A model generated the notes under the pieces. It saw only the letters and a program-made list of their open reading frames with translations. It had not been told where the DNA came from and did not search any database. DNA of 46,331 nucleotides from a virus. Its lineage: Duplodnaviria > Heunggongvirae > Uroviricota > Caudoviricetes. Below, piece by piece: positions 6,476 to 46,331 of the stretch. The position numbers and the translations under genes were made by a program. Location: the IMG/VR virus record IMGVR_UViG_2877948078_000002; one strand, 5' to 3'. Position 1 is the first letter of the stretch; every line of letters starts with the position of its first letter.

Positions 6476-6703
6476 ATGCTTAAAGCTGACGCAATTACTT
6501 TTTTTGGCAGCAAAACAAAGCTTGCCAATGCCGCAGGAGTGAGACTGGCAAGTGTTGCTGCTTGGGGGATACTGGTTCCTGAAGGTCGCGCGATGCGTCT
6601 ACAGGAGGCATCTGGCGGGGAGCTTCAGTATGATCCCAAAGTTTATGACGAATATCGTAAGACGAAGCGGGCGGGGCGATTGAACAATGAAAATCACTCC
6701 TGA
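6476..6703 (+). CDS. dicC: Cro-like regulator DicC
   Basis: About 75-aa product MLKADAITFFGSKTKLANAAGVRLASVAAWG…EGRAMRLQEASGGELQYDPKVYDEY…; AGGAGG Shine-Dalgarno 5 nt upstream of the ATG; divergent from dicA. Confidence 0.85.
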   Translation: MLKADAITFFGSKTKLANAAGVRLASVAAWGILVPEGRAMRLQEASGGELQYDPKVYDEYRKTKRAGRLNNENHS

Positions 6704-7208
6704 ACAGGCTCGTGAGGCTCTGGATGCCTGGATATGTCGACCAGGAATGACACAGGAGCAGGCGACGATATTAATCACTGAAGCATTCTGGGCTTTGAAA
6801 GAGCGCCCGAACATCGATGTTCAGCGTGTCACAGATGAAGGTGGCGCGGTTGATCAGCGAGCGCTTGGCGTTAATCGAGTGAAGATATTCGAACGCTGGA
6901 AGGCTATCGACACTAGGGATAAGCGTGAAAAGTTCACGGCGCTAGTGCCTGCAATTATGGAGGCTATCCGGATTAATGATTTCAGGTTGTATCGTGAAAT
7001 TAGTGACGGAAAAAGCATCACGTACATGATCGCCGGGTTAAACAAAGAATATGGCGATGTGGTGGAGTCCGGACTGCTTTTTGCTGATCCTGCCGTAGTG
7101 GATCGTGAAACTGACGAACTTATAGAAAAAGCAATTGCTTTCAAACTTGCGTATCGACTGCAATACCAACAAAAAGCTGGATGGAATTATGAGCCTTCTT
7201 TTTGCTGA
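6687..7208 (+). CDS. Hypothetical early protein immediately downstream of the cro-like gene (position of cII/YdaT-like regulators)
   Basis: 173-aa ORF overlapping the dicC end and the replication gene start; no motif I can assign with confidence. Confidence 0.55.
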   Translation: MKITPEQAREALDAWICRPGMTQEQATILITEAFWALKERPNIDVQRVTDEGGAVDQRALGVNRVKIFERWKAIDTRDKREKFTALVPAIMEAIRINDFRLYREISDGKSITYMIAGLNKEYGDVVESGLLFADPAVVDRETDELIEKAIAFKLAYRLQYQQKAGWNYEPSFC

Positions 7209-8154
7209 ACGCCCACTGGTTATAAACACACAGCTTGCGATGAAGATTGGCTTAAATGAAGCCATTGTGTTGCAGCAGTTGCATTACTGGTTGAGAGATA
7301 CCAATTCCGGCATGGAATGTGATGGTGTTCGCTGGATTTACAACACAACGGAACAATGGCTGGAACAGTTCCCATTCTGGTCAGAGTCAACGTTAAAGCG
7401 CGCGTTTGCAAGTCTGAAAACGCTGGGGCTTTTGCGTTGTGAAAAGCTCAATAAATCAAAGCGCGATATGACCAATTTCTACACGATCAACTATGGGAGC
7501 GAGCTTTTAGATGGTGGCAAATTGAACGAATCCATCGGTTCAAAATGCGCCGCTCCATCAGGTCAAAATGACACGATGGAAGAGGTCAAAATGAAACGCT
7601 CCATTGGTTCAAAACGACCCAATGTCATCGGGTCAAAATGGCCTGATGATCTTACAGAGAATACAACAGAGATTACTACAGAGAATAAAAACACTTTTCG
7701 TCCGGAAGCTTCGCAACCGGACCCGCAGACCGCTGAACAGGATTTTTTAACCCGGAACCCCGACGCGGTTGTGTTTAGTGCGAAAAAACGCCAGTGGGGT
7801 AGCAGGGAGGATTTGGCGTGTGCGCAGTGGATTTGGGGGCGGATCGTGAACCTTTACGAACAGGCTGCCAGCGACGATGGAGAGATCATGCGACCAAAAG
7901 AGCCTAACTGGACAGCCTGGGCCAATGACGTGCGCACAATGCGGATGCTGGATGGCAGAAGCCACAGACAAATTTGCGAAATGTTTGGTCGGGTACAGCG
8001 AGATCCATTCTGGGTAAAAAACATCATGAGCCCGTCAAAACTCCGCGAAAAATGGGACGAACTGGTCATCCGCTTGGGACGTTCACCTGTACAGCGTTGT
8101 GTGAATCATATTTCTGAACCGGATACAGAAATTCCGCCTGGTTTCAGGGGATAA
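7189..8154 (+). CDS. Replication initiator / replisome organizer (helix-turn-helix N-terminus, DnaT-like C-terminus); contains the iteron array
   Basis: About 320-aa product; N-terminal region resembles phage replisome organizers; internal SIGSK peptide repeats are encoded by the DNA iterons at 7531..7640, as in lambda O. Confidence 0.75.
   Translation: MSLLFAERPLVINTQLAMKIGLNEAIVLQQLHYWLRDTNSGMECDGVRWIYNTTEQWLEQFPFWSESTLKRAFASLKTLGLLRCEKLNKSKRDMTNFYTINYGSELLDGGKLNESIGSKCAAPSGQNDTMEEVKMKRSIGSKRPNVIGSKWPDDLTENTTEITTENKNTFRPEASQPDPQTAEQDFLTRNPDAVVFSAKKRQWGSREDLACAQWIWGRIVNLYEQAASDDGEIMRPKEPNWTAWANDVRTMRMLDGRSHRQICEMFGRVQRDPFWVKNIMSPSKLREKWDELVIRLGRSPVQRCVNHISEPDTEIPPGFRG
7531..7640. repeat. 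Iteron array (5 direct repeats of about 17 bp, tccatcGGTCAAAATG, period about 23-24 bp) followed by an AT-rich tract: putative origin of replication
   Basis: Repeats at 7531-7547, 7554-7570, 7579-7593, 7599-7616, 7624-7640; downstream 7641..7690 carries three ACAGAGAAT(T)A repeats and is AT-rich. Confidence 0.65.
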
Positions 8155-8194: not shown

Positions 8195-8617
8195 GTGGCA
8201 AAAGTTTTTACACAGGAAGAGCGGGAAAAAATTAAAGAGCAGGTGGTCGAACTTGTGCGCCAGAGCGGTCGCGAGACATTACGACAGTTGGAAGCTAAAA
8301 CAGGTGCGACAAGATATCTGATGAGCATTCTTGCCAGAGAGCTGGTTGCCAGTGGTTATGTATACAACTCCGGCTACGGGTTATTCCCGTCTGAACAGGC
8401 ACGAAAGGACTGGCAAAATGCCCGCAAAAAACTCTCTAGGGCGAAGGTGAAGAAACCCGCTGTGGTTGATCCGGACCTTATCTGGTCACTACCTGATGGA
8501 GAAATACGTCGCTACGACAGTCGTCTAAACATAATCTGTCGCGAGTGCCGGAAGAGCGAAGTTATGCAGCGCATATTGTCGTTTTATCAGGGAAATGTTC
8601 GGTATCTATTTAAGTGA
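8195..8617 (+). CDS. Hypothetical protein (140 aa), possible winged-helix DNA-binding protein
   Basis: GTG start with AAGGAGG Shine-Dalgarno 4 nt upstream; G+C content similar to phage backbone; sits between the replication gene and the AT-rich accessory locus. Confidence 0.6.
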   Translation: MAKVFTQEEREKIKEQVVELVRQSGRETLRQLEAKTGATRYLMSILARELVASGYVYNSGYGLFPSEQARKDWQNARKKLSRAKVKKPAVVDPDLIWSLPDGEIRRYDSRLNIICRECRKSEVMQRILSFYQGNVRYLFK

Positions 8618-8866
8618 CGAGATTAAAGTGCATTAGTTAAGATGTAAATTGACATTTTCATGGCATAGGGTAGAGGTAGCGTGGTTGTCTGCTTTGTGCC
8701 ATGAACTGATGTCGCTTGTGTGCGTGGCAATTAGTGTATAACGGATATCATCAGACTCCAGCAGTAGCATTGCTTGAGCATACTAACATATGAAATCTTT
8801 AGTTAACGTAAGATAAATTAGATTTAGTATTTTTTTGAGTATGAGCTCATAAATAATCAAAAAAAC

Positions 8867-8896
8867 TTGATACGCCATATGACTTTGATTTATTTT
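8867..8896 (+). promoter_or_regulatory. Candidate sigma70 promoter for the P-loop NTPase gene (TTGATA, 18 nt spacer, TATTTT)
   Basis: Hexamers at 8867..8872 and 8891..8896 within a roughly 300-bp very AT-rich intergenic region; by inspection only. Confidence 0.3.
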
Positions 8897-8934
8897 GGAA
8901 AAACATAAAGGTAATGTAATGTAAAGAGGAAAAT

Positions 8935-10422
8935 GTGGACATTAGAGACTGGCTACCAGAATTTCAAGTTTCAGCAGAAACAGATCGGGACTTACAGACC
9001 TATTTTTTTAAGCTACCGGCGATAAAGGATATTATTGAAAGTAGGGCTTGGTTGGTTCTTGGAAGAAAAGGTACTGGTAAAACAGCCATTTATGAACACC
9101 TTAGAAGAGGAAAACCAGCCAATCTCAACGGGTTTTACTCAGTATGTCTAAATTTTAGTGACTATCCATGGCCAGCCCATCAACTTTACAAGGATGCAAT
9201 GGCTGGAGAACTTTCCGCTTATCAAAAAAGTTGGATGTATCTTTTTTATATTAAGGCATTATCTAAACTTATTGAAATAAAAAATGATGCTGGAGAGACT
9301 TTAAACAAAGATCTAACGTGGGCACATAATTATATCAAAACTATCTTTGGTAGTCCCGACCCAACTCTTAGGGAGGTTTTGTTTTCAAAAATAACTAGAT
9401 TAAAAACCATAAAAGGGCCCAGTGCTGGTCTTAATGAAGTATCATTGGACGCAGGTGAAATTTCGTTAGAGGAAGTTGCTGAGAATGCTCAGCTAAAGCA
9501 AAAGCTAAGAGCTAATGCTTTCACATTGCTTACGTATTTTGAAAAAATTTTTAAAGATAACATTGGTAATGAAAAAATAATTATCGCCCTTGACCAATTA
9601 GACGAAAACTGGCTAGAGGGGCAAATTGAAGAATATAGTAAGGTTTTAATAAATCTGCTAAATGTCTGTAGAAACATAGCATCTGATGAACGCCTCAATG
9701 ATAAATTAAAAGTCATTCCCTTCCTACGAACGGATATTTATCATTCTTTGAAATTCAATGATAAAAACAAATTATTGCAAGATAGTGCTATCATAATCTC
9801 ATGGAATGAAAATAATCTAAACGATATGTATTATGAGAGGATAAAGAAATACAAACCTAATGATCTCATATTAGATGACGAAAAGGACAGATCTGGGAAA
9901 GTATTTGAGGTTTCATTCGTTAGGCAGGGGACTCCTCCATTTAAATATATATGTCGCCGTTCTTTCTTTAGGCCTAGGGATATTATTGTCTACTTCAACA
10001 AAATTAGGGCATGTCATAAAAATAATGTCTCAGGTCTTTACACTTCCAATGAGCTTTATGAAGCTGACCGTGAAGCATCTATAAGTGTGTACAATGAGGT
10101 GATTGATGAATGGTCCAACCAATTCCCTGAAATTGAGAACTTACTAACTGTTCTTCAAACTATCCAAGTAGAAACATTCGATTTTAATGATTTCTCCGAG
10201 AAGTGCCGTAATGAATTTGCAGGTATTTCTGATGGGGTGATACGTCAATATATCAACTTCCTGTTTGATAACTCACTTATCGGACAAAAAAAACAAGGTA
10301 GATGGGAATACGTAAGTAGTTTGCCTAACTTAAAAATTAATCTACAAAATGAGTTTAGGACACATCATGCTTTAAAATACAGGTTGCATTTAATAGAAAG
10401 CAGACCGAGCCAAAATATTTAG
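8935..10422 (+). CDS. Uncharacterized P-loop NTPase (495 aa): Walker A GRKGTGKT at residues 43-50, Walker B-like IIIALDQLDE at 215-224, uncharacterized C-terminal half of about 270 aa; candidate defence or exclusion gene
   Basis: GTG start with AAGAGGA Shine-Dalgarno; gene and upstream region visibly AT-rich compared with flanking phage genes (estimate by eye, roughly 35-40% versus about 50% G+C); occupies the slot that holds relBE next to hokD in K-12 Qin as recalled. Confidence 0.85.
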   Translation: MDIRDWLPEFQVSAETDRDLQTYFFKLPAIKDIIESRAWLVLGRKGTGKTAIYEHLRRGKPANLNGFYSVCLNFSDYPWPAHQLYKDAMAGELSAYQKSWMYLFYIKALSKLIEIKNDAGETLNKDLTWAHNYIKTIFGSPDPTLREVLFSKITRLKTIKGPSAGLNEVSLDAGEISLEEVAENAQLKQKLRANAFTLLTYFEKIFKDNIGNEKIIIALDQLDENWLEGQIEEYSKVLINLLNVCRNIASDERLNDKLKVIPFLRTDIYHSLKFNDKNKLLQDSAIIISWNENNLNDMYYERIKKYKPNDLILDDEKDRSGKVFEVSFVRQGTPPFKYICRRSFFRPRDIIVYFNKIRACHKNNVSGLYTSNELYEADREASISVYNEVIDEWSNQFPEIENLLTVLQTIQVETFDFNDFSEKCRNEFAGISDGVIRQYINFLFDNSLIGQKKQGRWEYVSSLPNLKINLQNEFRTHHALKYRLHLIESRPSQNI

Positions 10423-10439
10423 CTTACATCCATCTCCAT

Positions 10440-10694
10440 TAAGAAATCTTGCTATTGTTCTTATGGATCGTCTTTCTGACTGATTTCATATTGGCGAGGT
10501 AAAGGTAGTTAAGTAGAATGGCTGCGGGTGCTTGAGGCTATCTGCCTCGGGCATGAACACCAAAGGCAGATAGAGAAAAGCCCCAGTTAACATTACGCGT
10601 CCTGCAAGACGCTTAACATTAATCTGAGGCCAATTTCATGCTAGACACATGTAGGTTAGCCTCTTACGTGCCGAAAGGCAAGGAGAAGCAGTCT
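10440..10694. promoter_or_regulatory. hok mRNA leader / putative sok antisense RNA region with stable stem-loops
   Basis: Perfect 10-bp inverted repeat CTATCTGCCT…AGGCAGATAG (10538-10547 / 10564-10573), a second hairpin GCGTC…GACGC and direct repeats TTAACATTA around 10586..10625; in-frame upstream extension of hok (mok-like reading frame). Confidence 0.45.
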
Positions 10695-10850
10695 ATGAAG
10701 CAGCAAAAGGCGATGTTAATCGCCCTGATCGTCATCTGTTTAACCGTCATAGTGACGGCACTGGTAACGAGGAAAGACCTCTGCGAGGTACGAATCCGAA
10801 CCGGCCAGACGGAGGTCGCTGTCTTCACAGCTTACGAACCTGAGGAGTAA
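10695..10850 (+). CDS. hokD: Hok-family type I toxin (HokD/RelF-like, 51 aa)
   Basis: MKQQKAMLIALIVICLTVIVTALVTRKDLCEVRIRTGQTEVAVFTAYEPEE matches HokD/RelF as recalled; single transmembrane helix; AGGAG Shine-Dalgarno 9 nt upstream. Confidence 0.85.
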   Translation: MKQQKAMLIALIVICLTVIVTALVTRKDLCEVRIRTGQTEVAVFTAYEPEE

Positions 10851-10918: not shown

Positions 10919-10945
10919 AACCCGCTTCGGCGGGTTTTTGTTTTT
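10919..10945 (+). terminator. Intrinsic terminator at the hok mRNA 3' end
   Basis: GC stem CCCGC-TTCG-GCGGG followed by TTTTTGTTTTT; preceded by a second hairpin (CGGCGAGGGAGAAATCCCTCGCC). Confidence 0.6.
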
Positions 10946-16939: not shown

Positions 16940-17302
16940 GGTAATATTAAATCGGAACATTTACATCGCGGAATGTAAAATTTAAATAAAAAGGACTCTT
17001 CCATGAGCCAAAATTCCTGAAATCTTAAGGGTAAGATAAAAGGTCTTAATCAGAATGACACGTTATTATTAATAAATAAAGCTATTCTTTCATTGCTGTG
17101 TTTTTCTTTACAAAAGTAATCCTTGCTATGGGTGGTTAATCATGCGTTAATGGTGTTCTGGTTTGTTACAAATTTATCTGAAGCAGTCATTGTTATAATT
17201 TTATTATTTGTACCTCTTGAGATTTCCTTGTTGGTTTTTCTCTCTGATATTTTTTTTCGGACCATTCTGCCCAAGGGCTAATTTCTTCAAAAGGTAATAA
17301 TT

Positions 17303-17515
17303 ATGTCTAACAAAATGACTGGTTTAGTGAAATGGTTTAACCCTGAAAAAGGTTTTGGTTTCATCACGCCGAAAGATGGCAGCAAAGATGTGTTTGTCCA
17401 TTTCTCAGCAATTCAGAGCAACGATTTCAAAACATTAACTGAGAATCAGGAAGTTGAATTTGGTATTGAGAACGGACCTAAAGGTCCTGCCGCTGTTCAT
17501 GTAGTGGCGCTTTGA
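17303..17515 (+). CDS. cspI: Cold-shock protein CspI
   Basis: 70-aa product [70 protein letters not shown]; long AT-rich 5' leader. Confidence 0.9.
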
Positions 17516-17719
17516 GGTAGACAATATTACAAACCATATTCACTTTAGATGCCCGTGTTGTCATGGTTCCCAGTATAGAACATCATCTTTTGATGTTTCT
17601 GACATGAATCCTTTCGGGGCAAAATGTATCTTTTGTAAATCAATGATGATTACATTTGATAATATTTCACAATACTTAAATGCCAGCCGTCTGTCGTTGG
17701 ATTTAAAAAAGTGAAAATG

Positions 17720-17745
17720 AAGGCTCCTTCGGGAGCTTTTTTGCT
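17720..17745 (+). terminator. Intrinsic terminator
   Basis: Hairpin GGCTCC-TTCG-GGAGCT followed by TTTTTTG. Confidence 0.55.
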
Positions 17746-17785
17746 TGGTATCTATTCGATGGATACTCACATACTACGGTAACAT

Positions 17786-18017
17786 CATGAAAAAAATCAT
17801 AGTTTTTTTTAACTCTGAACCAGCAGTGGTAGTGCCAGCGATGACTGGAGTTAACACCATCATGCGTGAATATCCAAATGGCGAAAAAACACACCTTACT
17901 GTAATGGCCGCAGGGTTTCCATCTCTGACCGGAGATCATAAAGTCATTTATGTAGCCGCGGATCGACATGTTACTTCAGAAGAAATTCTGGAAGCAGCAA
18001 TAAGGCTCTTGAGTTGA
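17786..18017 (+). CDS. Hypothetical small protein (76 aa)
   Basis: Internal ATG of ORF 17745..18017 (MKKIIVFFNSEP…); no recognisable motif. Confidence 0.4.
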
Positions 18018-18188
18018 TTTGATGCTATTGTATTGATAATTCAGGAAAATTCTCTCTGTCTGTTTGTGTAAAATTTAGACTATCGTATGTTGATTATTGC
18101 GATGTTTCATCTTATCTTTTACACGTTTGCACCATATAATCGACTTACTGTGTAACTGGAAAGTCATAACAGACTAAAAGAGGAAATG

Positions 18189-18362
18189 ATGAATATTGAA
18201 AACTTAAAAACAAAAGCAGAAGCAGATATTTCTGAATATATAACAAAAAAAATTATTGAACTTAAGAAAAAGACCGGGAAAGAAGTTACCAGTATTCAGT
18301 TTACCGCACGGGAAAAAATGACGGGTCTTGAAAGCTATGATGTCAAGATTAATTTAATCTGA
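18189..18362 (+). CDS. gnsB: GnsB-like small protein (57 aa)
   Basis: Not in the ORF track (under 60 aa); translation MNIENLKTKAEADISEYITKKIIELKKKTGKEVTSIQFTAREKMTGLESYDVKINLI resembles GnsA/GnsB as recalled; AGGAA Shine-Dalgarno upstream. Confidence 0.65.
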   Translation: MNIENLKTKAEADISEYITKKIIELKKKTGKEVTSIQFTAREKMTGLESYDVKINLI

Positions 18363-18513
18363 TGTATTCAATAATAAAATTTATCCATAAACCTCGTTTT
18401 TACGGGGTTTTGTTATATTTGAATGGTTCCGAATATCTAAATCACAATTGTTGATGGTTTTTATTAAACCAATGCAGTCCGGCTCAGGAGTGAGAGAAGC
18501 CGGACGTTATGGT

Positions 18514-42450: not shown

Positions 42451-43025
42451 TGGCATTCAGAATGAGTGAACAACCACGGACCATAAAAATTTATAATCTG
42501 CTGGCCGGAACTAATGAATTTATTGGTGAAGGTGATGCATATATTCCGCCTCATACAGGTCTGCCAGCAAACAGTACCGATATTGCACCGCCAGATATTC
42601 CGGCTGGCTTCGTGGCTGTTTTCAACAGTGATGAGTCATCGTGGCATCTCGTTGAAGATCATCGGGGTAAAACGGTTTATGACGTGGCTTCCGGCGACGC
42701 GTTATTTATTTCTGAACTCGGTCCGTTACCGGAAAATGTTACCTGGTTATCGCCGGAAGGGGAGTTTCAGAAGTGGAACGGCACAGCCTGGGTGAAGGAT
42801 ACGGAAGCAGAAAAACTGTTCCGGATCCGGGAGGCGGAAGAAACAAAAAACAACCTGATGCAGGTAGCCAGTGAGCATATTGCGCCGCTTCAGGATGCTG
42901 CAGATCTGGAAATTGCAACGGAGGAAGAAATCTCGTTGCTGGAAGCATGGAAAAAGTATCGGGTATTGCTGAACCGTGTTGATACGTCAACTGCACAGGA
43001 TATTGAATGGCCAGCACTGCCGTAG
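42450..43025 (+). CDS. tfa: Tail fibre assembly protein (Tfa)
   Basis: 191-aa ORF immediately after stf (TAATG overlap); size and position of lambdoid Tfa. Confidence 0.85.
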
Positions 43026-43122
43026 GGTAAAACATATAAATTCTATAATTAGATGTATCTTTCCATTTACGGCAAGGAAGGGGGCTTGGAAGACGTAAAG
43101 CATCTCACACCGAGATTATTTT

Positions 43123-43713
43123 TTATATGTCAGGTGTCTGAAGTTTTGCTTTGGCTCTTAAAATGGTTTGCCGCGAGGTTTTGAATTCCCGGGCAATGGC
43201 ACTTATACTTACACTTGACTTAATTCGTTCGAATACCACCTGTTTCTGTTCTTCATTTAACACAGGTGGTCGACCAAAACGTTTCCCTGCGCCGCGGGCT
43301 CTTACTATCCCGGAATGAGTGCGTTCAAGTAAAAGGTCTCGTTCAAATTCAGCAACTGCTGAAATTACTTGCATCATCATTTTTCCTGTTGGACTGGTCA
43401 AGTCAATGCCCCCCAATGCTAAGCAATGCACTCTGATACCTGTTTCGGTCAGTTGTTCCACTGTTTTCCTGATATCCATTGCATTACAACCAAGGCGATC
43501 CAGTTTTGTCACAATCAATTGATCACCACATTTCAGGCGAGCAAGCAACCGGTTAAAACTAGGACGCTCACTGGTTGCTGCTGAGCCGCTAATGTGTTCT
43601 TCGATTATTTGCTGAGGTTTGATTTTAAAACCTGCACTTTCGATTTCCCGGCGTTGATTTTCGGTGGTCTGATCCAGCGTTGATATCCGACAGTAAGCAA
43701 AAATTCGAGACAT
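43123..43713 (-). CDS. pin: Serine recombinase DNA invertase (Pin/Gin/Hin family)
   Basis: 196-aa product [20 protein letters not shown]… with catalytic Ser in the N-terminal motif and a C-terminal HTH; convergent with tfa. Confidence 0.9.
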
Positions 43714-44029
43714 AGTGAGACTCTATACGAAATTGGTGTTCATATCATAATGCATCTCAGAAAATAATTTTGATTATTTTTGTGCATATTTGTATGTACA
43801 CGTTCGAAAATAAACGAATGCGTATGCAACCCCGTAATTTTGGTGAGACCCAAAATCGATTTTGTGAAAAATGGCTTTAACTCGGTTTGTTTTTCGAGTT
43901 CTGGGCGGACTCAAGGAAGAAGAATAGTGTTTCGTGTTATTTTAACCAGATTTTAAGTTGTTTGGTCGTGGAAAAGTGGAGCAAAATGTTGTTAAAGTGG
44001 AAAAATGATAAAAAAGTAAGTTTATTATA

Positions 44030-44263
44030 TTACATTTTACCATTTAAATTTTGGTTGTCTTTAAGAACTGATATCGCTGTTTGTAATAATTCTTTGTTAT
44101 CCAGCCATGATTTTTTCTTTATGTTTCCTTCAATGTAATCAAGCAATGTTCTGGTATTGATAGGTCTTCCCTGTTTTGCTACTTCCACTACAGCATCCCC
44201 TAGGATAATTCTTACTTCAGGAAGCTGCGCAGGGAACCACTTTAGGGTGTCTTTTGATTTCAT
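44030..44263 (-). CDS. ydfK: YdfK-like small protein (77 aa)
   Basis: Internal ATG with AAGGAA Shine-Dalgarno gives 77 aa MKSKDTLKWFPAQLPEVRIILGDAVVEVAKQGRPINTRTLLDYIEG…, matching YdfK/YnaE as recalled. Confidence 0.6.
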   Translation of the reverse strand: MKSKDTLKWFPAQLPEVRIILGDAVVEVAKQGRPINTRTLLDYIEGNIKKKSWLDNKELLQTAISVLKDNQNLNGKM

Positions 44264-45047
44264 GAAGATATTCCTTAAAATATTATTGATTTTCATTGCG
44301 ATATTGTATGTCTGATTCAGGATATGTTGACTTATACATCGGTTTTGTCTGGGTTATTGGATATGCCAATCCCTAATTTTATTAGGGCATGACTAAAAAT
44401 GCTGAATATGATAAGGAGAGAAGTGATTATCAGTATGCTGTTCATATAGCCTCGAATTAGTAATGTGTTATATATGATATAGTTGACAATTTTTATCTTG
44501 GGTGTTCTTAAAGTTCGTAGATAAACATTGTCGTTTCAGGTATACAGGAATGCTAACAGGTGGCAGCAAAAATCAGGCGGTTATGGCGCAAGCTGAAGCG
44601 GCAACTGCAAACTATCTTATGCAGAGACTCTACACGGATTGGGTTTAAAAGTATACATAGATAACAGTTTTTATCTGAAAAAGAAAAATATCAAGGTGAT
44701 ATAGCCTATATGCCTTTGATGCGGAGGAATGAATGTGATGGGAGTGATGTATCTGAATAGTTGAAAAACCGCAGACACGCCTTATGCAAGAACGTGCTGC
44801 GGTTGGCTGGTAAATTTTTCGATAGTGTGAGTATTGAATGATTTCCAGCCGTTCTTGATTTTACGCATAAATCCATGAAAAAACTACTTATCTGTTGGGG
44901 AGTTTTTTTGGGGCATATATGGGACAGAAATAGGCCCCAGATAGACACTGAGATCGAACTTAGGATGCTTTTTAAAAAATGCAACTATCTGAAAAAACCT
45001 AGAAAACGCCAAGGAAACCACAGGATGGGAAAAAACACCTGTGAATT

Positions 45048-46331
45048 ATGGATTTCCAGTTATATTCGCTCGGCGCAGCGTTGGTGTTTCATGAAATATT
45101 TTTTCCTGAATCATCAACGGCAATGGCGTTAATTCTGGCAATGGGAACCTACGGTGCAGGTTATGTCGCGCGTATTGTCGGAGCATTTATTTTCGGCAAA
45201 ATGGGCGACAGAATAGGGCGTAAAAAAGTGCTCTTTATTACCATCACCATGATGGGGATCTGTACCACCTTAATTGGTGTGTTACCGACCTATGCACAGA
45301 TTGGTGTTTTTGCCCCCATCTTGCTGGTGACGCTGCGTATTATTCAGGGGTTGGGTGCAGGTGCGGAAATTTCCGGTGCCGGTACGATGCTGGCGGAATA
45401 TGCACCAAAAGGTAAGCGCGGAATTATCTCCTCATTTGTAGCTATGGGAACTAACTGCGGAACCTTGAGCGCAACGGCAATCTGGGCCTTTATGTTCTTC
45501 ATTCTCAGTAAAGAGGAACTGCTGGCGTGGGGATGGCGTATACCGTTCCTGGCGAGCGTTGTCGTGATGGTCTTTGCTATCTGGTTACGTATGAATCTGA
45601 AAGAAAGCCCGGTCTTTGAGAAGGTTAATGACAGCAACCAACCCACAGCAAAACCTGCACCTGCTGGTAGCATGTTCCAGAGCAAATCCTTCTGGCTGGC
45701 AACAGGGCTGCGTTTTGGTCAGGCGGGTAACTCCGGGTTAATTCAGACTTTCCTTGCAGGCTATTTAGTGCAGACGTTATTGTTTAACAAAGCAATTCCA
45801 ACAGATGCATTGATGATTAGTTCGATTCTCGGCTTTATGACCATTCCGTTCCTTGGTTGGTTATCCGATAAAATTGGTCGCCGGATCCCGTATATTATTA
45901 TGAATACCTCCGCGATTGTGCTGGCATGGCCAATGCTTTCTATCATTGTAGATAAAAGCTATGCCCCGAGCACCATTATGGTTGCACTGATTGTGATTCA
46001 TAACTGTGCGGTGCTGGGATTATTTGCTCTGGAAAACATTACCATGGCAGAAATGTTCGGCTGTAAAAACCGCTTTACCCGGATGGCTATTTCTAAAGAA
46101 ATTGGTGGTCTTATCGCTTCCGGTTTTGGTCCTATCCTGGCGGGTATTTTCTGCACCATGACGGAATCCTGGTATCCGATCGCCATTATGATCATGGCAT
46201 ATTCAGTAATTGGTTTAATCTCTGCGCTGAAAATGCCAGAGGTGAAAGACCGTGATTTAAGTGCGCTGGAAGACGCTGCGGAAGATCAACCGCGTGTTGT
46301 AAGAGCTGCGCAACCTTCCAGAAGTCTGTAA
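45048..46331 (+). CDS. ydfJ: MFS transporter YdfJ (metabolite:proton symporter family), probably N-terminally truncated by the prophage insertion
   Basis: 427-aa ORF with multiple transmembrane segments and MFS signature GKMGDRIGRKK; begins inside the conserved first transmembrane region with a stop codon directly upstream of the ATG. Confidence 0.8.
   Translation: MDFQLYSLGAALVFHEIFFPESSTAMALILAMGTYGAGYVARIVGAFIFGKMGDRIGRKKVLFITITMMGICTTLIGVLPTYAQIGVFAPILLVTLRIIQGLGAGAEISGAGTMLAEYAPKGKRGIISSFVAMGTNCGTLSATAIWAFMFFILSKEELLAWGWRIPFLASVVVMVFAIWLRMNLKESPVFEKVNDSNQPTAKPAPAGSMFQSKSFWLATGLRFGQAGNSGLIQTFLAGYLVQTLLFNKAIPTDALMISSILGFMTIPFLGWLSDKIGRRIPYIIMNTSAIVLAWPMLSIIVDKSYAPSTIMVALIVIHNCAVLGLFALENITMAEMFGCKNRFTRMAISKEIGGLIASGFGPILAGIFCTMTESWYPIAIMIMAYSVIGLISALKMPEVKDRDLSALEDAAEDQPRVVRAAQPSRSL

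Follow-up and report, generated by a model that had tools for sequence, protein, structure and literature searches.

The closest described relatives of the gene considered here are two single-gene systems, Fun(Z) of phage P2 and DS-41 of Escherichia coli. For fun(Z), the P2 genome record (NC_001895) notes: 'cloned gene blocks growth of T5; nonessential; lysogenic conversion; confers sensitivity to FUdR' (FUdR, fluorodeoxyuridine). DS-41 ('AAA2', WP_033812887.1) is a single 502-aa E. coli gene from the DefensePredictor study, validated in 2026 as anti-phage against BASEL phages; protection amounted, for example, to ∼3.6 log for Bas63 and 2.3 log for Bas19 (PMC13092281). Here, we compare with these two systems an ATPase gene located in a 46 331-nt stretch of viral DNA (Caudoviricetes; IMG/VR record IMGVR_UViG_2877948078_000002), called the window below. 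The window contains a complete Qin-type lambdoid prophage, from integrase through tail fibres, and the gene of 495 codons occupies a slot between the DUF977 gene and hokD. We consider it probable that this is a lysogenic-conversion gene protecting the lysogen from other phages, a reading that follows from its homology to Fun(Z) and DS-41.

Relationship to Fun(Z) and DS-41

In the preliminary description of the locus the protein was said to be a P-loop NTPase of unknown family. We saw that it belongs, over its full length, to NCBIfam NF047389, 'P-loop ATPase, Sll1717 family' (score 250.4 bits, E = 3.8e-74; residues 13–484 aligned with model positions 5–454). This model has 454 positions and a curated cutoff of 75 bits; membership was taken as a score above the cutoff with end-to-end coverage. 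The protein also matched PHROG 13260 over its full length (7.6e-34; residues 14–485 against 14–490 of 497), in a collection, PHROGs, that has no curated cutoffs. The RefSeq product name for the identical gene is already P-loop ATPase, Sll1717 family, and the family includes a described exclusion gene: P2 Fun(Z) (NP_046777.1, 528 aa) scored 209 bits on NF047389 and 1.9e-211 on PHROG 13260. Furthermore, PGAP gives the copies of P2 fun(Z) found in E. coli the same product name as the window gene. The route to P2 was the label 'FunZ' carried by distant Bacillus plasmid homologues.

In a pairwise BLASTP comparison the window protein and Fun(Z) were 18% identical (E = 5e-7). Alignment of the family profile with Fun(Z) by hhalign (probability 99.7%, E = 2.9e-25, 470 columns) placed all motifs in register: the N-terminal AE motif, Walker A (GRKGTGKTA in the window protein, GEKGTGKTA in Fun(Z)), Walker B (IIIALDQLDE and ILFIDGIDIR), the putative sensor-1 arginine (FLRTDIY and LIRPDIF), the F-N-x-K motif (FNDKNKLLQDS and LQNQNAKIRDNS), the RPRD motif (FFRPRDII and YYRPRDIL) and the C-terminal helix. 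Both genes are single non-essential AT-rich pieces of prophage cargo, with G+C content (GC) of ∼33–35% in genomes of ∼50% GC. In P2 (50% GC), fun(Z) (32.8% GC), old and tin form AT-rich islands, the same signature as that of the window gene; also, the 89% identical Klebsiella orthologue of the window gene lies between P2-like tail operons next to tail-fibre genes, in a position resembling that of fun(Z) in P2. On the other hand, apart from the low identity, the carriers (lambdoid versus P2) and the slots are different, and the window subfamily occurs in many phyla, whereas P2 fun(Z) DNA was seen in 13 of 5426 E. coli genomes.

DS-41 appears as a more distant homologue, seen at the profile level only: hhalign of the family against it gave a probability of 97.7% and E = 2e-12 over 329 columns. 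Both DS-41 and the window protein are bare P-loop ATPases of ∼500 aa with no effector domain. The motifs common to DS-41 and the window family are the N-terminal one, Walker A and B, FN.K and PR(D/E); cloned on its own, the DS-41 gene confers protection. Unlike the window family, DS-41 has no sensor-1 arginine in the alignment, and its NCBIfam model is NF053860 rather than NF047389. Some other family members scored 31–58 bits on NF053860 ('DS41_1_antiphage'), below the cutoff of 370 bits, and the phage range of DS-41 need not carry over to the window protein. A defence or exclusion role, proposed in the preliminary description from genomic context, is backed by these two homologies.

Predicted architecture of the ATPase

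The model built by AlphaFold2 (AF2) from 40 homologues had a predicted local distance difference test score (pLDDT) of 77 and a predicted template modelling score of 0.74. The fold is predicted to be that of an AAA+ ATPase of the ORC/Cdc6–STAND type with a lid and a winged helix, and it resembles the STAND proteins CED-4, Avs5, Avs3 and plant NLRs. Along the chain, the N-terminal segment is followed by β1 with Walker A, β2, a helical insertion, Walker B, β4, the lid and the winged helix; thus, what had been taken for an uncharacterized C-terminal half corresponds to a predicted AAA+ lid and winged helix. The two nucleotide-binding motifs recognized initially, GRKGTGKT and IIIALDQLDE, are present with their key residues unchanged: G43, K45, G46, G48, K49, D220 and D223 were invariant in 41 family members with 21–55% identity, and the catalytic motifs of the window protein are intact (K49; D220, D223 and E224; R265). 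The position of R265 suggests a sensor-1 arginine.

The insertion begins at a conserved YPWP..H motif, contains a loop of low confidence (aa 139–175) and is the least conserved segment; Y77, W79 and W100 are conserved family-wide. In the lid, the RPRD motif (aa 346–349, nt 9970–9981) has P347 and R348 invariant and R346 and D349 nearly so; it aligns with YRPRD of P2 Fun(Z) and SPRE of DS-41. The wing and tail (residues 446–495), with an isoelectric point of 10.3, make up the most conserved segment of the subfamily.

No Pfam model matched the window protein above threshold; among the 41 members there were sub-threshold matches to ORC-CDC6-like (21 members) and AAA_16 (21 members), and for the window protein itself AAA_16 reached 14.9 bits against a cutoff of 32.6. 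No STAND model of Pfam matched at threshold, and family members had only sub-threshold matches to nSTAND1, nSTAND3 and NPHP3_N. Searches of PDB sequences with close and broad family profiles returned matches to the P-loop motif only, and among the BFVD viral structures there was no match below 1e-3. A KAP P-loop NTPase was considered and rejected because no transmembrane helices were found (the maximum of the Kyte–Doolittle 19-residue window was 0.83 versus ∼1.6); there was no Pfam KAP match either.

The window protein has the STAND order of domains: NTPase, helical domain, winged helix. STAND immunity NTPases (Avs, bNACHT) have a C-terminal repeat sensor and an N-terminal effector, whereas the window protein is without both; neither the Pfam search nor the AF2 model showed a nuclease, protease, NADase or membrane effector domain, and at residue 495 the chain terminates with the winged helix; no C-terminal repeat, large sensor or fused effector was seen by the same two approaches. 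It is also conserved throughout, in contrast to the diversifying sensor of STAND immunity NTPases. Sequence identity to ORC/Cdc6 AAA+ proteins, to archaeal PAB2304 and SSO1545 and to BrxC of BREX was 9–16%. In comparison with proteins of the ORC/Cdc6 type, the window protein adds the ∼105-aa helical insertion after β2; its gene is not in a replication-origin context and is not conserved in the carrier phage.

Some distant ATPases of the Sll1717 family (P0164, P0170, P0249 and P0253) have a fused C-terminal GT4-conflict glycosyltransferase, an inserted EAD7 or an N-terminal cold-shock domain; the GT4 and EAD7 fusion proteins, those fusions that were tested, pass the NF047389 cutoff. For GT4-conflict and EAD7, the predicted roles in conflict systems are those of effector and adaptor modules (PMC8195603, PMC7159879). 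Judging by domain composition, these fusions show that the ATPase module also serves as the switch of effector-bearing conflict systems. The fusions of distant members also hint at nucleic-acid binding.

The DUF977–hokD slot and spread of the gene

Coordinates of the features are collected in Table 1, together with the contexts of orthologues from other hosts. The 495-aa ORF (open reading frame) proposed originally was confirmed: it has an intact frame and a GTG start, with a Shine–Dalgarno sequence at a spacing of 5 nt read from the sequence, and in genomes 99.9% identical the RefSeq start is the same GTG. One could suppose that the ORF is a decaying or non-functional passenger, as among the E. 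coli copies there are a few that are truncated or carry an IS3 insertion (the gene is split in STEC313 and STEC367); with ∼150 residues invariant over 40 sequences spanning many phyla, an intact frame and every catalytic motif retained, we find this hardly credible.

Table 1. Features of the ATPase locus in the window, and locations of orthologues (identity to the window protein in per cent)
Feature	Position	Strand	Basis or context
Variable cargo cassette, DUF977–hokD slot	8702..10446	.	Homology breakpoints versus five prophages; GC
AT-rich leader, presumed promoter region	8702..8934	+	Inside cassette
Shine–Dalgarno AAGAGG	8924..8929	+	Sequence reading
Coding sequence (CDS), 495-aa P-loop ATPase, Sll1717/Fun(Z) family	8935..10422	+	NF047389; PHROG 13260
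Walker A GRKGTGKT, aa 43–50	9061..9084	+	G43, K45, G46, G48, K49 invariant
Helical insertion, ∼105 aa (aa 79–183), β2 to pre-Walker B helix	9169..9483	+	AF2 secondary structure, pLDDT
Walker B IIIALDQLDE, aa 215–224	9577..9606	+	Model strand aa 214–220; D220, D223 invariant family-wide
R265, end of β4 (FLRTD)	9727..9729	+	Invariant in 41 members; model strand aa 258–265
AAA+ lid, aa 291–365	9805..10029	+	Helical bundle in model
C-terminal winged helix, ∼aa 400–490, basic wing GQKKQGRWEY and basic tail RTHHALKYRL	10132..10404	+	
DUF977 gene, end of replication module, left backbone flank, outside cassette	8195..8617	+	
hok/sok locus, right backbone flank, outside cassette	10526..10850	+	Rfam sok, hokD CDS, backbone homology
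Serratia marcescens orthologue, 81%			P2-like prophage, between gpA and ogr/portal
Klebsiella pneumoniae orthologue, 89%			P2-like prophage, between two tail operons, next to tail-fibre genes
Proteus orthologue, 88%			Just outside integrase of lambdoid prophage
Vibrio cholerae orthologue, 71%			After filamentous prophage (Rep_trans...Zot), beside rtxA
Shewanella orthologue, 70%			Lone insertion between pst and phoBR genes

The cassette is 1745 bp long and has 34.4% GC. Its ends were mapped against five prophages carrying other cargo: backbone homology stops at 8701 (two of the five have 8657 and 8704 instead) and restarts at 10447 in every case. The impression that the gene and its upstream region are richer in AT than the flanks was borne out by computation, with 35.0% GC in the ATPase gene and 33.4% in the 317-bp upstream spacer versus 49.2% in the remaining window; the GC of the gene falls within the lowest 2.5% of sliding windows of equal length taken across the window. 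The location, too, is as described earlier, between the replication module and hok/Q (rem, ydfU and the Q-like ydfT come after hokD) and at the relBE site of K-12 Qin, where relB–relE lie directly upstream of hokD in the equivalent position. The AT-rich leader accompanies the ATPase gene in E. coli and contains a candidate −35/−10 pair at 8867–8896, while for promoter-like sites 10 were found versus 7.1 expected. In relatives at 79–82% DNA identity the leader is not conserved; homology there covers the ORF exactly and nothing beyond.

A search for flank–cargo–flank arrangements found numerous Qin-like prophages that share the backbone but differ in cargo. Among the cargos, there were a HEPN protein of 310 aa (locus L023, 1952–2884), a hypothetical protein of 340 aa (L026, 1962–2984) and a DUF5677 protein of 341 aa (L027, 1057–2082), all three with no PADLOC match; a DUF4209 protein matching the PADLOC candidate PDC-S39 (1e-102); an AIPR protein matching AbiU (7e-24); sets of methyltransferase and QueH genes; and relBE in K-12. 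The slot is therefore a variable hotspot, as had been suspected, with defence-type genes among its cargos (AbiU-like, PDC-S39, HEPN, relBE). No housekeeping phage function is conserved at this position, since most relatives have other cargo and the ATPase gene had one weak match among 50,697 phage genomes. By their position in the slot, the HEPN, DUF5677 and 340-aa hypothetical proteins are candidate defence genes. Prophage hotspots of these kinds also house P2 Old/Tin, relBE, the AbiU-like protein and PDC-S39, likewise as single, AT-rich cargo that can be exchanged; in fold and mechanism these bear no relation to the window protein.

In the alternative loci 340–820 bp remain unannotated between the cargo and the right junction (L023, 2885–3318; L024, 3769–4194; L025, 3883–4312; L026, 2985–3807; L027, 2083–2420), versus 24 bp in the window. 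There may be small genes or RNAs in these stretches.

Adjacency to hok/sok, pointed out in the preliminary description, is real. The adjacency looks incidental because hok is a constant backbone element next to changing cargo, and because no hok accompanies the gene in other taxa (none was found beside the Serratia, Klebsiella, Vibrio and Shewanella orthologues). Functional coupling of the ATPase with hok/sok was rejected on these grounds. A multi-gene system was also rejected, as there was no conserved partner gene: in clustering of neighbouring ORFs over 18 loci and the window, no family except the ATPase itself was present in more than four loci.

These observations bear on whether the ATPase is only a sensor or switch half, STAND-like, which switches on an effector supplied by a separate gene (a host factor, a further prophage gene or hok). 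Such an arrangement would fit the fold shared with CED-4, Avs5, Avs3 and plant NLRs, the presence of EAD7 (a predicted effector-recruiting adaptor) or fused GT4 in some distant members, the lack of an effector domain in the window protein and the lack of a terminator between the ATPase gene and hok. Still, we consider it unlikely, given that no gene co-occurs with the ATPase over the 18 loci from many phyla, that hok is a fixed part of the backbone missing from the four other contexts, and that bare DS-41 (in plaque assays) and Fun(Z) (according to the record note) act as single cloned genes.

On the right side of the slot, the sok RNA match (Rfam, 116 bits) is at 10526–10697, the hokD CDS at 10695–10850 and a terminator at 10919–10936. 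An antisense orientation to the hok leader would be expected of Sok. The Rfam match is on the same strand as hokD and overlaps an ORF at 10638–10850. Homology to K-12 restarts only at 10681, so that K-12 hokD is without the leader segment 10447–10680.

At E ≤ 1e-3, an exhaustive search for homologues yielded 1,373 representative clusters, with lengths of ∼480–520 aa in nearly all. Full-length homologues with 62–72% identity were found in Vibrio, Shewanella, Marinobacter, Methylococcaceae, Nitrosomonas, Arcobacteraceae, Sulfuricurvum, Bdellovibrionaceae, Flavobacteriia and Patescibacteria, a range that extends from E. coli to Bacteroidota, Campylobacterota, Bdellovibrionota and Patescibacteria. 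Of 5426 complete E. coli genomes, 43 had the ORF, with identity never below 99%; seven E. coli records listed at '90–95% identity' match the flanks only and not the ORF. The ATPase gene was richer in AT than its flanks in 16 of 16 loci from other hosts; in the Pseudomonas locus, the figures were 41% versus 69% GC. The sharp junctions, the AT richness across hosts and the sporadic presence in E. coli agree with the earlier proposal of horizontal acquisition of an accessory gene. The ATPase gene is self-contained horizontally acquired cargo, a single ORF moving between unrelated temperate phages (Table 1); the location of the Serratia orthologue is the old/tin hotspot validated by Rousset et al. 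(PMC9122126).

With this distribution, it is very unlikely that the ATPase works for its mobile carrier element instead of defending the host, as a DNA-bound replication, partition or target-selection factor akin to ORC/Cdc6, DnaC or TnsC. The gene is rare in E. coli, where the same backbone carries other cargo in the slot, and nearly absent from phage genomes; its locations range from tail-gene regions and the neighbourhood of a portal gene to the outer side of an integrase gene and a solitary chromosomal site. The P2 record lists fun(Z) as non-essential, and two STEC copies of the window gene are disrupted by IS3. The reading as a helicase loader or replication factor was rejected on the gene distribution; DnaC/IstB models had no match in Pfam, NCBIfam or PHROGs.

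A more divergent relative was seen on the IncF plasmid pKGB1a of Klebsiella variicola (L043, 1372–7536). This protein of 513 aa, 29% identical and scoring 261 bits on NF047389, is encoded near the RepB replicon, next to pifC and the gene for a PifA-like P-loop protein of 735 aa. In related plasmids the same place is taken by a 557-aa 'DNA repair protein' with partial similarity, beside a ParD antitoxin. In V. cholerae (L046, 1–10485) the filamentous prophage (Rep_trans, DUF1293, Zot) is situated beside rtxA and upstream of matP, with the orthologue distal.

Elsewhere in the window, a gene for a YdaT-family 'toxin' (6687–7208) overlaps the start of a gene for a 339-aa replication protein (7135–8154); the latter protein is called replication protein O or replisome organiser in some genomes and hypothetical in others. 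Two more AT-rich zones of the prophage, ∼17000–19500 (35% GC), which lies in the csp/ynf/gnsB accessory region that follows the lysis genes, and ∼43000–45500 (38–39% GC), beyond the tail-fibre genes, probably carry further cargo genes.

Function and significance

A specific mechanism can be proposed from the architecture, at a much lower level of certainty than the protective role itself. The protein would be produced in the lysogen and would recognize a phage ligand (incoming or replicating DNA, or a conserved phage protein) via the winged helix and/or the insertion. Recognition would be followed by ATP-dependent assembly; an early step of infection would then be blocked, by occupying or sequestering the target or by disturbing DNA metabolism, and no catalytic effector would take part in the block. 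The record note on FUdR sensitivity conferred by Fun(Z) suggests interference with DNA metabolism, although it is only a lead.

Several observations weigh against a protective role. The window protein had no match to the DS-41 equivalog model NF053860 at E ≤ 1, and PADLOC-DB v2.0.0 gave no match to a named system, its sole match being to the candidate PDC-M28C (4.1e-5, residues 212–304). The anti-T5 activity of Fun(Z) rests on a note in a database record, and at only 18% identity to Fun(Z) the target range and the mode of action may differ. The scan of the ATPase locus for promoters and terminators gave no signal above chance. The non-prophage loci represent mixed contexts, with defence genes not rigorously enriched among the neighbours. 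Conservation of the whole protein, at 62–72% identity across phyla, is atypical of fast-evolving phage sensors.

The last point would also fit a host-physiology conversion gene (acting, for example, in nucleotide or DNA metabolism) that has a universal cellular target, for which exclusion would be a side effect or would be absent in this subfamily. The FUdR sensitivity recorded for fun(Z) is a host-metabolism phenotype, and some loci, e.g. that of Shewanella, have no mobile or defence genes nearby. We regard this explanation as improbable, because the gene is located in two validated or classical exclusion hotspots of the P2 type and in a slot shared with Abi-type genes, because two relatives have reported anti-phage phenotypes, and because the sporadic distribution at the strain level is typical of defence cargo.

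With protection of the lysogen as the preferred reading, one could speculate that the window subfamily is an effector-less immune ATPase with a mechanism new to defence systems, in which ORC/Cdc6-like assembly would block infection without a catalytic effector. The site of assembly would be the DNA of the phage, on entry or during replication, or else a replication component that is conserved universally. This further step is doubtful. If it is true, the uniform conservation, including that of the basic winged helix, would reflect a target invariant across bacteria and their phages, and Fun(Z), DS-41 and ∼1,400 related clusters would together represent a single large class, so far unrecognised, of minimal antiviral switches of the ORC-like type.

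The family name in RefSeq and P2 Fun(Z) as an old example are known already. The connection between Fun(Z), the Sll1717 label and DS-41 is not made in accessible sources; Fun(Z) is not mentioned in PADLOC v2 or in the paper on P2 hotspots (PMC9122126). We found no mechanism for any family member and no experimental data on the window subfamily in the accessible literature.

The comparison brings together the gene of the Qin slot, P2 Fun(Z), the 'Sll1717 family' and, more distantly, DS-41 as one superfamily of ORC/STAND-like ATPases, in which Fun(Z) is among the oldest recorded prophage exclusion genes. A gene annotated by family name alone thus gains a concrete, testable function, and ∼1,400 uncharacterised protein clusters are linked to anti-phage biology. 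As a single 495-aa protein with no effector domain and extreme conservation, the subfamily is attractive for mechanistic study. It is carried by at least three unrelated types of temperate phage, and the DUF977–hokD slot of Qin-like prophages emerges as a sharp-edged hotspot with further defence candidates.

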